From NCBI GenBank assembly GCA_002778785.1, contig PEZS01000010.1, positions 184,671 through 248,670 of the forward strand: a stretch of DNA of 64,000 bases, read 5' to 3'. Below the pieces are notes generated by a model, which ran no database searches, was not told the origin of the DNA, and worked only from the letters and a program-made list of their open reading frames with translations. The position numbers and the translations under genes were made by a program. Source of the stretch: Bdellovibrionales bacterium CG10_big_fil_rev_8_21_14_0_10_45_34. Lineage in GTDB: Bacteria; Bdellovibrionota; Bdellovibrionia; Bdellovibrionales; 1-14-0-10-45-34. Below are positions 12,937-45,362 of this stretch, one piece after another. Position 1 is the stretch's first letter, and each line of letters begins with the position of its first letter.

Positions 12937-13012
12937 TGGCGTTCCCACGGGGATTCGAACCCCGGTATCCACCGTGAAAGGGTGGTGTCCTAGGCCTCTA
13001 GACGATGGGAAC
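12937..13012 (-). tRNA. tRNA-Glu (anticodon UUC), CCA encoded
   Basis: The reverse complement is GTTCCCATCGTCTAGAGGCCTAGGACACCACCCTTTCACGGTGGATACCGGGGTTCGAATCCCCGTGGGAACGCCA. It folds by hand into a cloverleaf with a 7-bp acceptor stem and anticodon loop CTTTCAC. Confidence 0.95.
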
Positions 13013-13140
13013 ATTGCTGAGGCAAAAGAGGTATGAATCTGCCAGAGATTTCTTTAATGAACAACTTTTTCTTCAAGAATTTAGCTCAACTATAAAGGGG
13101 ACACACAAAAAGAGCCGCGGGATTATCAACCCTTGCGAAA

Positions 13141-13216
13141 TGGTGAGCCGCGATGGACTCGAACCATCGACCCCATCCTTAAAAGGGATGTGCTCTACCG
13201 ACTGAGCTAGCGGCCC
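13141..13216 (-). tRNA. tRNA-Lys (anticodon UUU), CCA encoded
   Basis: The reverse complement is GGGCCGCTAGCTCAGTCGGTAGAGCACATCCCTTTTAAGGATGGGGTCGATGGTTCGAGTCCATCGCGGCTCACCA. It folds into a cloverleaf with anticodon loop CTTTTAA. Confidence 0.95.
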
Positions 13217-21983: not shown

Positions 21984-22127
21984 CCTCTACTACTGTATTT
22001 AAATGCAATCCGCATACCCAGGTATTGCATTCCAGAGCGACCTAGAAGAGAGCTCGTAATGTGTTGCTGTCGAAACTATGAGAAGCAAACTTTTTTTTTA
22101 CAGTATTGGAAGGGGATTCTGCGGTGT

Positions 22128-22181
22128 AATTACCAAGCGATTCTGACCCTATTTAATTACCAAGGGAATTTAACCCTATTT
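22128..22181. repeat. Imperfect tandem 27-bp direct repeat (2 copies, 23/27 identical)
   Basis: AATTACCAAGCGATTCTGACCCTATTT is followed directly by AATTACCAAGGGAATTTAACCCTATTT, about 145-200 bp upstream of the lipoprotein gene start at 21983. Confidence 0.85.
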
Positions 22182-41704: not shown

Positions 41705-41881
41705 ATCTTTAGTTTACCCAAGTCGGGCACGCCATTAGAGGCTAAGTCTTTGAATTACCGAGGAACGCGACGTTCGCATGGGAAAATTATTCCATCTTCT
41801 CGAAATGTTTTCCCCGCCCAGAACAATTTCTCAGCAAATTTCTAGACGCGTAAACAGCTTCAGCGAGGAGTTCTGGTCTAT

Positions 41882-41915
41882 TTAATTCGATGATCATTTT
41901 AATTCGATGATCATT
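41882..41915. repeat. Perfect 17-bp tandem duplication, each copy containing the 10-bp palindrome AATGATCATT
   Basis: TTAATTCGATGATCATT occurs twice, at 41882-41898 and 41899-41915. The second copy overlaps the stop codon of the response-regulator gene (41911-41913). Confidence 0.9.
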
Positions 41916-43317
41916 CGTTCACGAAAAACTCTTTTGCAATAATGCCGTACTTGCGCATTTTTCTAAGAAGAGTGTTCTTAGGTATGTTGGCCTGGGCCAC
42001 TGTTTGGTTAATTCTGCCGTTGTTAGCCTTTAGAGCAGCCAAAATAAATTCTCGCTCGGCCTTCTCTTTAAACTCTTCGAAGTCTAAGGCACTCTCTACA
42101 TGCACACCCGGCGCAGGCGCAGTCGTTTTTGCAGCCGCCTGAATTTGCTGGGGCAAGCTGGCCAAAGAAATGGTAGAGGAGTTCTCAACAATAAAAGCGT
42201 GTTCAATAACATTTTCGAGCTCACGAATGTTGCCTGGCCACCCATAATGTTTAATCGCCTTTAACGACTCATCAGAAACACCAGTCATTTTTCGCTTGTG
42301 CTGCAAATTAAATTTTTCAATAAAGCGACTCACCAAAGACTCAATGTCATCGAGCCTTTCACGTAGAGGCGGAATAAAAATTGGCATGACGTTGAGCCGG
42401 TAGAACAAATCTTCGCGAAACGAACCATCGACGATCATTCTCTCTAGATTTCGATTTGTTGCGGCTATCACCCGAGATCCGGTGCGCACTTCTCGGTTGC
42501 TACCCACCGGCATAAAAGTTTTGTCTTGAAGTACTCTCAGTAGTTTCACCTGCATCTCAGGAGGTAACTCACCAATCTCATCTAAAAAAAGTGTCCCTTG
42601 ATTAGCCAGTTGGAATTTGCCAATTTTTCTCTCTGTCGCACCTGTAAAAGCACCTCTTTCATGTCCGAACAGTTCGCTCTCCATTAAGTTGACTGGAATG
42701 GCTCCGCAATTGATGGCTACAAAGGGGCCGGCTTTCCTGGGCGAGTTAAAATGAATGGCCCTAGCGACGAGCTCTTTTCCGGTACCGTTTTCTCCGCGTA
42801 TGAGAACAGTTGTCTCTACTTTGGTAAGCCTACTTACCAAATCAAAGATTTGCCTCATTTGGGTAGACCCGCCTACCATGTCACTTTCAATGTCGTCGTC
42901 AAAAATGGGGTTCGACATGGCAATCTTTGAAACCATCTCTCTGGCATCTAAGGCTTTTCTTACAATCTCAGAAAGCTTTTCAGCCTGAATGGGTTTTTCG
43001 ACGTAATCATAGGCACCTTCTTTTATAGCATCGATGGCGTCTTGCACGTTCCCGTGAGCCGTGATCAACACAACAAAAGTGGAAGGGTCTATCTCTTTGA
43101 TCTTTTTAAGGGTTGTAAGTCCGTCCATCTCGGGCATTCGGACGTCAAGAAGGATGAGATCCCATTTAGTTTGAGAGAACATCTGAAGTGCCTTTGCGCC
43201 ATTGTCAGCTTCTGCCGTAACCACGGGCAACCCAAAATCTTCCCGCTCTAGCGCCAGCTTTATTGACTCTCGAAGTTCCGGTTCATCATCGACTATTAAT
43301 ACTTGTATTTTGTTCAT
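41911..43317 (-). CDS. Sigma54-dependent response regulator (NtrC family)
   Basis: The track ORF is 41911..43362. The ATG at 43317 gives MNKIQVLIVDDEPELRE. Domains: receiver, AAA+ (GENGTGKELVARAIH, GAFTGA) and a C-terminal Fis-type HTH. Confidence 0.9.
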   Translation of the reverse strand: MNKIQVLIVDDEPELRESIKLALEREDFGLPVVTAEADNGAKALQMFSQTKWDLILLDVRMPEMDGLTTLKKIKEIDPSTFVVLITAHGNVQDAIDAIKEGAYDYVEKPIQAEKLSEIVRKALDAREMVSKIAMSNPIFDDDIESDMVGGSTQMRQIFDLVSRLTKVETTVLIRGENGTGKELVARAIHFNSPRKAGPFVAINCGAIPVNLMESELFGHERGAFTGATERKIGKFQLANQGTLFLDEIGELPPEMQVKLLRVLQDKTFMPVGSNREVRTGSRVIAATNRNLERMIVDGSFREDLFYRLNVMPIFIPPLRERLDDIESLVSRFIEKFNLQHKRKMTGVSDESLKAIKHYGWPGNIRELENVIEHAFIVENSSTISLASLPQQIQAAAKTTAPAPGVHVESALDFEEFKEKAEREFILAALKANNGRINQTVAQANIPKNTLLRKMRKYGIIAKEFFVNE

Positions 43318-43417
43318 TTGAAGCCTTTTAAAAGAGATTCTTTGATTAAAGGTATTTCGCAAGTAAAATTCATTTCACTAGCGACCTTTTGAAAAAAGAT
43401 TCTAAATATTTTAGTGT

Positions 43418-43504
43418 CCGATCACCGATCACCGATCACCGATCACCGATCACCGATCACCGATCACCGATCACCGATCACCGATCACCGATCACCGATC
43501 ACCG
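43418..43504. repeat. Heptanucleotide microsatellite (CCGATCA)x12.4, with 12 GATC sites
   Basis: I read a perfect 7-bp periodicity over 87 nt with no interruption. It lies in the 155-nt gap between the kinase stop (43518) and the regulator start. Confidence 0.98.
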
Positions 43505-43517
43505 TGCCCGGATTTTA

Positions 43518-45362
43518 TCATAGGGGCAAGGTAAAGCCAATCTTCGTGCCTTGGTTTATTTCGCTGCTGACAAATACCCTACCCCCGTGAAGCTCGACAA
43601 AATATTTCACAAAGTAAAGTCCCAGGCCACTGCCACGGGTGTGAAGTTCAGACTGGCTACCGCGGTAAAATTTCTCCCAAACTCGCTCCAGGTCACTTTG
43701 CCCTATACCAGGTCCATTATCGATGACAGTCACGTCTACCATATTTTCGTGTTCCCGAGTGATAACCTTAACAATAGAGCCATTAGGAGTGTATTTAATG
43801 GCGTTTTCGATAAGGTTCTGTAGCACCTCTTTGATGAGTACCGGATCGACTTCGACCGAGAAAAGTGGTTCCAAATCTTGCAGTATCATTGAATTTTTTT
43901 CCTGGGCAAGCGGCTTGAGCTCATCGACCAACCTAAGAACAATATCGTTAATATCTACAGGTTGTTTATGCAGTTTGAAGTCTACGGCCTCCACCCGAAT
44001 AACCTGAAGTATCGACTGAATGTATCGATGGAGTTCATAGCTGGCTTTTCTCAGTGAACCCAGCTCTTCAGAAATTTCACTCTCTAAAGCAGAAAACTTG
44101 AGTTTGTCGAGTGTTGCAGAGATTTTTGCTAAGGGTGTCTTAAGGTCGTGAGAAAAAAGGCTCACAAAGTTATTCTTCATTATTTCAAGCTCTCTAAGAT
44201 TGCTGCTTTCTTGCTCGAGTAGCCAATTGAGACGATCCTTTTCTGTGAGCTGCCAGGTGACAAACAAAGCCAAAATTAAAGTGCCCATAATAATAGGGCT
44301 AGCAATAGGGAGCCAAAAGTGGACGACGTCGAACATCCAAGTCGACGCTGCAGCAATAAATCCCCAAACGACGAAAAATATCGTAAGTGTTAGCAAGGGC
44401 GGAAAGACTATGGAAATTAAGGCAAACAGAAAACAAAGGACAAGCAAGTAAATGGCGTAAAACCAAGTCGGCGCTTTCTTAACCCATTCATCAAATGCGA
44501 GGTTGTGAAGGATGTTGCCAATAACGGCAGCTTTTGGCATCGGCCCCAATGGAGTCTGAAGTTCTTGACCTGCAGATTGTCTGGCTCCAACCAAAACAAC
44601 GTGACCTCGGAGTTTCGCTCGCTGAACGGAATTCGTTAAGATCTCTGCAAAGGTGAAGGTGGGAAAGACATCGGGTGGGCCCAAATAGTTTATCGTTTCT
44701 ACCACATGATTAGGCCTAACTACGTCGCCGATTTCACGAGCTAGTGATAGGGGCAAACTTGTCGCCGTCGAAGGTGTTGGAATAACTCTTCTGAGCACAC
44801 CATCAAGATCTTCAGTTAGGTCTACGAGGCCCGCGTTTGGCGAGTAAATTCGTGGTGCAAATCGAGGCAGGCGCGTGCGCCCTTCAGCATCAAGCCTAGC
44901 CGACCAATAAACGCGAGGGTTCTCAAACACAACCATAGAAGACAGTCGTCTTGGTCGTGGAATGTTTTCACCGAAGAAAAAGGTTACGCCTATCGCCTTT
45001 ACTTCTACTTCTAATAGCCGCCTAATGAGAGTAGTCCAAAGTTCTTCGTTCCAAAAGTAGCTGTCTGTAAGGGGGCCGATTTCTTTAAGTGGACGGATCA
45101 TATTGATCGATGGTTCGACCCACCTGTACCACTCTTGCTCGTTAACGAGCACGAGGGCTATAGGAGCTTTCAATGGCTGAGAAGGTCTTACCTGAAAGCG
45201 GTAATCATAATTTGTAGATTCGTCATACTGTAATGCCACGAGTGAAATGAGCCAGGCTATGAGCGCTCGAGCTGCCAAACTGCCTATGACTCTCCCCCCC
45301 CACATCTGTAGGCGGTTTGGCTTTTTCATGGTTTTGTTATTTAACGACATTTTGCTGCCCAC
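43518..45362 (-). CDS. Sensor histidine kinase with a CHASE2-like extracytoplasmic domain
   Basis: Track ORF of 614 aa. Architecture: N-terminal TM, ~250-aa periplasmic region, 3 TM segments, the HisKA H-box SLFSHDLKTPL, and the HATPase N/G boxes (NLIENAIKYT, GSGLGL). A G8 tract lies at codons W-G-G-R (45294-45301). Confidence 0.8.
   Translation of the reverse strand: MGSKMSLNNKTMKKPNRLQMWGGRVIGSLAARALIAWLISLVALQYDESTNYDYRFQVRPSQPLKAPIALVLVNEQEWYRWVEPSINMIRPLKEIGPLTDSYFWNEELWTTLIRRLLEVEVKAIGVTFFFGENIPRPRRLSSMVVFENPRVYWSARLDAEGRTRLPRFAPRIYSPNAGLVDLTEDLDGVLRRVIPTPSTATSLPLSLAREIGDVVRPNHVVETINYLGPPDVFPTFTFAEILTNSVQRAKLRGHVVLVGARQSAGQELQTPLGPMPKAAVIGNILHNLAFDEWVKKAPTWFYAIYLLVLCFLFALISIVFPPLLTLTIFFVVWGFIAAASTWMFDVVHFWLPIASPIIMGTLILALFVTWQLTEKDRLNWLLEQESSNLRELEIMKNNFVSLFSHDLKTPLAKISATLDKLKFSALESEISEELGSLRKASYELHRYIQSILQVIRVEAVDFKLHKQPVDINDIVLRLVDELKPLAQEKNSMILQDLEPLFSVEVDPVLIKEVLQNLIENAIKYTPNGSIVKVITREHENMVDVTVIDNGPGIGQSDLERVWEKFYRGSQSELHTRGSGLGLYFVKYFVELHGGRVFVSSEINQGTKIGFTLPL

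Follow-up and report, generated by a model that had tools for sequence, protein, structure and literature searches.

The window, by which we mean the whole 64-kb stretch of DNA analysed here (45% G+C), carries on its minus strand a gene for a CHASE2-HisKA-HATPase_c sensor histidine kinase (43518..45305; 595 aa in public assemblies), followed by a gene for an NtrC-type sigma54-dependent response regulator (41911..43317; 468 aa). The kinase was identified from Pfam and its translation, and the regulator from Pfam, its translation and public gene calls. The kinase ORF can be extended to 45362 and ends with a TGA at 43518-43520, while the regulator starts with an ATG at 43317-43315 and comprises Response_reg (receiver), Sigma54_activat (AAA+ sigma54-interaction) and HTH_8 domains. 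Pfam thus confirmed the two flanking genes of the original prediction, and the kinase stop at 43518 is as given there. The regulator start, previously placed at 43317 or 43362, could be narrowed down, as all public gene calls (468 aa) and the lengths of homologues (468-473 aa) back 43317. Because the regulator starts with the ATG at 43317, the spacer between the two genes measures 200 nt (43318-43517) instead of the 155 nt first given, and the repeat array within it occupies 44% of the spacer and not most of it. The array begins 13 nt past the kinase stop and ends 100 nt before the regulator ATG. The remaining 100 nt on the regulator side (43318..43417, minus strand) are unique, AT-rich and non-repetitive, and contain a weak Shine-Dalgarno-like AAAGG at 43324-43328. 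This segment and the other non-repeat parts of the spacer occurred only once in the window and matched none of the loci retrieved, and an origin of the spacer from a mobile element or MITE was rejected on these grounds. The only RNA genes located in the window by Rfam and ARAGORN were tRNA-Glu(ttc) and tRNA-Lys(ttt), which lie about 130 nt apart at 12937-13216 on the minus strand; between 43250 and 43600, Rfam returned nothing at E<=1.

The array itself (43418..43504) is a heptanucleotide simple sequence repeat (SSR) with the unit CCGATCA, which reads C(GGTGATC)12GG over 87 nt on the minus strand, that of the genes, and holds 12 GATC sites, the number originally counted. TRF described it as a period-7 array of 12.4 copies with 100% matches, 0 indels and a score of 174, and detected no second comparable array in the 64-kb window. 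A regex scan limited to perfect repeats (units of 1-9 nt, repeated 3 times or more over 15 nt or more) likewise returned it as the sole perfect SSR in the 64 kb. Both methods agree with the earlier description of a perfect 7-nt array at these positions, (GGTGATC)n on the coding strand, that nothing else in the window resembles. When the window was searched with the double-unit 14-mer CCGATCACCGATCA at up to 2 mismatches, all 11 matches fell within the array, compared to 0.22 expected from shuffles. As in a contingency locus, the heptamer tract is long, pure and prone to slipped-strand mispairing.

The host organism is known from metagenomes only. Its closest non-identical kinase homologues showed only 45% identity, and those that carried names belonged to MAG Bdellovibrionales, Bdellovibrionaceae or Bdellovibrionota; with homologues at or below 45% identity and the named ones all in Bdellovibrionota, the host is therefore a divergent uncultured member of that phylum. 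In the six relatives examined, synteny ran from a divergent ribF to the kinase and then the regulator, and the locus often had T2SSE/MshEN genes at one end and heptosyltransferases at the opposite end. The kinase-to-regulator spacing in these relatives was -4, +11, +10, -32, -32 and +16 nt, and the Shine-Dalgarno sequence of the regulator lay inside the kinase 3' end. No SSR was found in 52 kb of the relatives' loci. Since in all six syntenic relatives the genes either overlap or are separated by no more than 16 nt, the 200-nt spacer with its tract represents a lineage-specific insertion. The ancestral kinase-regulator operon was tight and probably translationally coupled, judging from the gene spacing.

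The original prediction held that the tract is mutable by slipped-strand mispairing and proposed a comparison of copy number among metagenome-assembled relatives. We surveyed contigs encoding exactly the same regulator and exactly the same kinase, which gave 10 loci (L001-L010); alleles were read from assemblies, not from raw reads. Compared to the 12 perfect units of the window, L001/L007 (ENA ERZ27293414) carried 11 units, of which unit 7 was TGTGATC (one G>T), and L002 (JGI 3300025850) likewise carried 11 units with TGTGATC as unit 7. A second contig of JGI 3300025850 (L008) had 7 perfect units with both flanks present, and this one sample therefore holds two alleles, of 11 and 7 units. The 2.6-kb contig L005 (ENA ERZ27293413) had 4 units, a doubtful count, and the contig ended inside the tract in L003, L004, L006, L009 and L010. 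The flanks showed 0 mismatches to the window, over 5821 nt towards the kinase and 7509 nt towards the regulator (13,330 nt). The tract would thus have undergone at least two or three length changes and one substitution within 87 nt, whereas the 13,330 nt of flanks had undergone none. These results indicate that copy number (12, 11 interrupted, 7 and possibly 4 units) differs between contigs encoding identical proteins, as slipped-strand mutability predicts, and that the tract is very probably a hypermutable SSR with real natural length polymorphism. At assembly level, it shares with contingency loci a copy number that varies among otherwise isogenic strains, here amid 13.3 kb of identical flanks. 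A flank-anchored gapped pattern, which matched L001, L002, L005, L007 and L008 locally, gave 0 matches in a metagenome contig collection that does not include these samples.

The broken contigs bear on how far each allele can be trusted. The contig ends inside the tract lie at L003:1, L004:1, L006:1, L009:4861 and L010:4831; about 4 units are carried at the broken ends in Logan L004 and L010 (k = 31) and in JGI L003, and about 8 in JGI L006 and L009. The amount of repeat at contig ends tracks the k-mer length of the assembler. Assemblies break systematically at the tract, which is what polymorphism or a length above k would lead one to expect. Because the tract breaks assemblies at a k-dependent length, short collapsed alleles such as the 4-unit L005 are untrustworthy. 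A de Bruijn assembler can shorten a tract of 7n+3 nt to the smallest in-phase length of at least k-1. Since collapse at k = 29-31 gives exactly 4 units, doubt falls on the 4-unit allele as well as on contig ends with 4 units, and L005 may be an artefact, a minimal assembly shortcut at that k. The 7-unit allele (52 nt) needs real spanning reads, because a shortcut to it arises only at the uncommon k = 47-53 and both flanks are present; this argument reasons from contig geometry. The interrupted 11-unit allele is not prone to collapse, as its pure sub-tracts never exceed 45 nt, and its occurrences in L001 and L002 may stem from the same reads assembled twice, since their contig coordinates nearly coincide. 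At least three true alleles (12, 11 interrupted and 7) are likely, and we hold this with high confidence.

One reading of this variation is a true phase-variation locus, in which slippage alters promoter or operator spacing or UTR structure and thereby causes heritable, reversible switching of the regulator in a diversified population. It fits a long, pure tract with a unit length that is not a multiple of 3 and a copy number that varies between otherwise identical genomes, and a candidate promoter lies just upstream, so that the tract would be a 5' leader. This sigma70-like candidate, TTGGCT-17 nt-TAAAAT with an extended -10 TG (TTGGCT-17-TGaTAAAAT; 43512..43540, minus strand; 9/12 match), overlaps the stop codon and last codons of the kinase, and its predicted start falls at about the first repeat unit; the region holds 3 sigma70-like matches compared to 4.1 expected by chance from shuffles. 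However, a length of 87 nt rules out any action of the tract through -35/-10 spacing, and a promoter downstream of it would be blind to unit number, because a periodic tract presents the same upstream sequence (about 80 nt) at any copy number. The spacer contains no enhancer-like element and no match to the sigma54 promoter TGGCAC-N5-TTGCW, whose matches across the window are attributable to chance. Nor can the tract frameshift a protein, since in the sense orientation all three frames contain stops and reach a TGA within 21 nt. Two short antisense ORFs (44 and 58 aa) with TTG/GTG starts cross the tract and read (SPITDHR)n; they were rejected as genes, as no Shine-Dalgarno sequence was seen and they exist only through the stop-free antisense reading of the tract.

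What makes a contingency locus, a unit change that alters expression from within an ORF, between -35 and -10 or over an operator, was thus not found here. The "classic contingency layout" originally proposed does not hold for a tract of 87 nt that lies in no credible ORF and directly after a stop codon, in an operon tightly coupled in relatives. The regulator is moreover cytoplasmic, its operon is probably translationally coupled in relatives, and the 64 kb contain no other SSR, unlike genomes that use contingency loci. Precedents do exist, namely the heptanucleotides about 100 bp upstream of hmw1A/hmw2A (summarised in PMC2651432) and the short tracts of C. jejuni flgS/flgR (summarised in PMC8355987), but the described class of G-rich heptamers is not tied to phase variation (PMC4692102). 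We consider phase variation quite improbable at this locus; an effect through a UTR or between the cistrons is possible.

The 12 GATC sites in 87 nt could alternatively mark an element acting at the DNA level on transcription or replication, as a methylation patch, an array bound by a protein (e.g., the regulator itself) or a two-tetrad G-quadruplex. Three units (21 bp) would amount to two helical turns, placing every third unit on the same face, and related GGGNATC repeats form G-quadruplexes (G4) in vitro (PMC4692102). The dense GATC patch first suggested stands as far as its 12 sites are concerned, but its methylation found no support in the window: outside the array, GATC occurred 300 times against 310.6 expected (0.97), and no DPPY-type methyltransferase ORF was present within the 64-kb window. 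The window thus gave no sign of GATC avoidance or enrichment, or of a Dam system. The array has runs of GG only, without the GGG needed for a stable G4 of the known class, and neither a cognate binding protein nor a regulator binding site could be identified. Single-stranded DNA folds of both strands were no better than those of shuffles, on which basis a DNA cruciform or hairpin was rejected as well. An element of this kind is highly improbable.

We searched for exact (GGTGATC)3 with one genome per species and obtained at least 120 stretches (L011-L130). Among the matches listed, the phyla included Bacteroidota, Verrucomicrobiota, Planctomycetota, Chloroflexota, Acidobacteriota, Calditrichia, Actinomycetota and others, arrays reached up to 19 units, and about 13 genomes had 2-4 separate loci. 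Examples of arrays are L093:5172-5290, L045:3667-3799, L064:252-363, L095:5619-5716, L030:6779-6841 and L116:5497-5566; genomes with multiple loci include Bacteroidia gw_gwSRR_metabat.15 (L059, L061, L069 and L093), Akkermansiaceae Prado245 (L044, L045 and L048) and Caldilineales DTUCFX11 (L024, L041, L082 and L112). Many arrays grade into one-base variants (GGTAATC, GGTGAGC, GGTGACT, GGTAGTC and GGGGATC), and several are followed by an inverted array, which would give a long perfect hairpin between convergent genes. With crude ORF calls and among the matches listed, intergenic arrays between co-oriented ORFs were sense in 23 cases and antisense in 12 (P = 0.09), and other intergenic arrays lay between convergent genes in 17 cases compared to 6 between divergent ones (P = 0.035); an orientation bias is suggestive at best. 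In viral contigs, GGTGATC gave 10 stretches compared to 3-6 for each of four composition-matched control heptamers, and arrays of at least 6 units occurred only for GGTGATC (4/10 vs 0/19; Fisher P = 0.009). Unique over-representation of GGTGATC was rejected, as its excess is only modest apart from the longer arrays.

These counts bear on a neutral reading, in which the tract is a by-product of selfish or mutational heptamer expansion in dispensable intergenic DNA that affects neither gene, with slippage outpacing decay by point mutation. GGTGATC at 3 or more copies recurs in at least 120 stretches of unrelated genomes, control heptamers in viral contigs are of similar magnitude (3-6 stretches vs 10), and the tolerated range of 7-12 units suggests no strong length constraint; heptameric SSRs are over-represented in bacteria, possibly for reasons of polymerase mechanics (Mrazek et al. 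2007, as cited in PMC4692102). The RNA hairpin described below is also generic. The neutral reading sits less easily with a perfect 12-unit array that is the sole SSR in 64 kb, when 52 kb of relatives hold none, with the excess of GGTGATC arrays of 6 or more units over controls, or with the position of the tract between two genes whose stoichiometry matters, where a structure of about -50 kcal/mol in an operon transcript is unlikely to be wholly silent. We regard the neutral reading as a tentative but serious alternative, and the copy-number variation may be selectively neutral.

Together, the GGTGATC arrays of these many phyla look like a wider group related to the GGGNATC/STRR heptamer families and for the most part undescribed. 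These comprise the G-rich heptamers GGGAATC (Xanthomonas) and GGGGA(C/T)T (Nostoc; STRR repeats) (Rehm et al. 2015, PMC4692102), the cyanobacterial STRR heptamers going back to Mazel et al. 1990, as cited in PMC4692102. Such repeats are intergenic, mostly between co-oriented ORFs, transcribed and variable in length between close relatives; GGGNATC-type repeats prefer to follow a stop codon within 50 bp and to have their G-rich strand as the coding one, and the authors found no link to surface genes and no role in gene regulation (PMC4692102). The tract studied here shares the 7-nt unit, the G-rich coding strand, the location 13 nt past a stop between co-oriented genes, the length variation (7 to 12 units with identical flanks) and the lack of any link to surface genes, and it is putatively transcribed. 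GGTGATC matches GGGGATC at 6/7 positions, and GGGGATC adjoins GGTGATC units in L104. The locus thus fits the known class of long G-rich heptanucleotide SSRs just after stop codons, with the qualification that its unit, having GG in place of GGG and no canonical G4 tract, makes it a sequence relative. It further differs in having 12 units compared to the preferred 4, a single array in the 64-kb window compared to hundreds dispersed per genome, and a Bdellovibrionota host (45% G+C) in place of a cyanobacterium or a large genome of high G+C. The recurrence of GGTGATC and its variants across phyla widens the known range of heptamer SSR families. Literature searches on the GGTGATC unit itself and on the sample accessions found nothing relevant.

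Other repeat systems resemble the locus in part. Upstream of H. influenzae hmw1A/hmw2A, (TGAAAGA)13-38 modulates expression quantitatively (Dawid et al. 1999, as summarised in PMC2651432). As far as that summary goes, both cases have a long and pure 7-nt SSR that precedes a start codon by about 100 bp (here 100 nt) and varies in copy number between strains, and the effect there is quantitative, not a frameshift on/off effect, as the putative expression effect here would be. According to the same summary, the H. influenzae tract is part of the actual promoter region of an adhesin gene, in a host-adapted pathogen with many contingency loci, whereas ours separates two cistrons of a regulatory operon in an environmental bacterium poor in SSRs. 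Tract mutations in C. jejuni flgS/flgR (Hendrixson 2006, 2008, as summarised in PMC8355987) likewise target a sigma54-dependent NtrC-type regulator and its kinase, but in the summarised work these are short poly-A/T tracts within coding sequences that shift the frame, and an intergenic 7-nt unit permits no frameshift. The intergenic TAACTGA heptamer direct repeats of Beggiatoaceae, Cyanobacteria and Bacteroidetes, for which a post-transcriptional role was proposed (MacGregor 2015, PMC4679880), are also transcribed and also recur as the same unit in distant phyla. They differ in occurring as 2-6 copies, in 169 sets in one genome and a few nt upstream of starts (PMC4679880), in contrast to the single long array beside a stop codon here.

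On the RNA level, a 241-nt segment folded at -82.7 kcal/mol (z = -5.6) as the sense strand and at -53.5 kcal/mol (z = -2.5) as the antisense strand. The predicted fold of (GGUGAUC)n is one long hairpin of 6-bp UGAUCG/UGAUCG helices (with G-U wobbles) separated by single G-G mismatches, and its length grows with copy number, the local folds of the alleles being -54.3 (12 units), -47.3 (11 interrupted), -30.5 (7) and -16.7 kcal/mol (4). An exceptional hairpin was rejected: among all 2340 heptamer classes, (GGUGAUC)12 reached only the top 11%, and its stability is equalled or exceeded by many units of identical composition. Such folding is general to G+U-rich repeats and does not point to selection. 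Immediately downstream of the repeat hairpin, RNA folds placed a small AT-rich stem-loop (GGACACUAAAAUAUUUAGAAUCU) running into a U6 tract (43392..43419, minus strand), which may represent a weak terminator-like feature; a consensus terminator scan, which needs at least 3 G-C pairs, did not report it. The tract fairly probably forms such a hairpin in a transcript. Stem-loops between cistrons are known from REP/BIME-type elements and RNase III sites, where inverted repeats of fixed length set differential expression within an operon. The tract resembles these in its stable intercistronic transcript hairpin, predicted to uncouple the mRNA fates of the two cistrons, and differs in that its stem arises from a self-complementary direct repeat of mutating length.

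Taken together, we favour the reading that the tract is a slippage-prone, long, G-rich, stop-codon-proximal heptanucleotide SSR that arose in a lineage-specific 200-nt insertion splitting the kinase-regulator operon, and we give this account about an even chance of being right. Under this account, transcription on the gene strand would run through the tract, coming from the kinase by read-through or starting at the candidate promoter that overlaps the kinase stop, and the transcribed (GGUGAUC)n would pair with itself in a stem that lengthens with each added unit. The most likely effect would be a graded, heritable shift in the amount of regulator mRNA made or surviving, relative to kinase mRNA. 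The hairpin might serve as an insulator between the cistrons, as a leaky terminator jointly with the downstream AT-rich stem and U6, as a substrate for an RNase III-type enzyme when the stem is longer than about 20 bp (i.e., from about 7 units), or as a 5' stabiliser. The functional step from tract to regulator level is pure inference, and any effect would be graded and exerted through the transcript, an on/off switch being unlikely. That copy number measurably tunes the regulator level is possible but doubtful, and that such tuning has been selected for is rather unlikely. A further version, a heritable and reversible "rheostat" in which (GGUGAUC)n stem length sets the regulator:kinase ratio, e.g., through an RNase III threshold or read-through attenuation, is unlikely.

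If the rheostat were real, sibling cells would differ in the gain of a signalling pathway, and the locus would represent SSR-driven variation of two-component stoichiometry in a free-living, non-pathogenic bacterium. Should copy number tune the regulator, SSR bet-hedging would extend from the surface genes of pathogens to signalling in an environmental predator lineage. The proposed mechanism, in which an RNA stem of variable length lies between cistrons, lends itself to a simple test. A neutral locus would still offer a clean natural example of fast heptamer mutation, and the tract also shows how such repeats fragment metagenome assemblies.

Two further repeats were observed in the window. 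A perfect 17-nt direct repeat (ATGATCATCGAATTAAA x2.1) at 41881-41915 on the minus strand overlaps the stop codon of the sigma54 regulator and contains GATC; it could be a duplication or a direct repeat for protein binding. At 22127-22181, TRF detected a 27-nt unit (TAATTACCAAGCGAATCTAACCCTATT) present twice with 85% identity.
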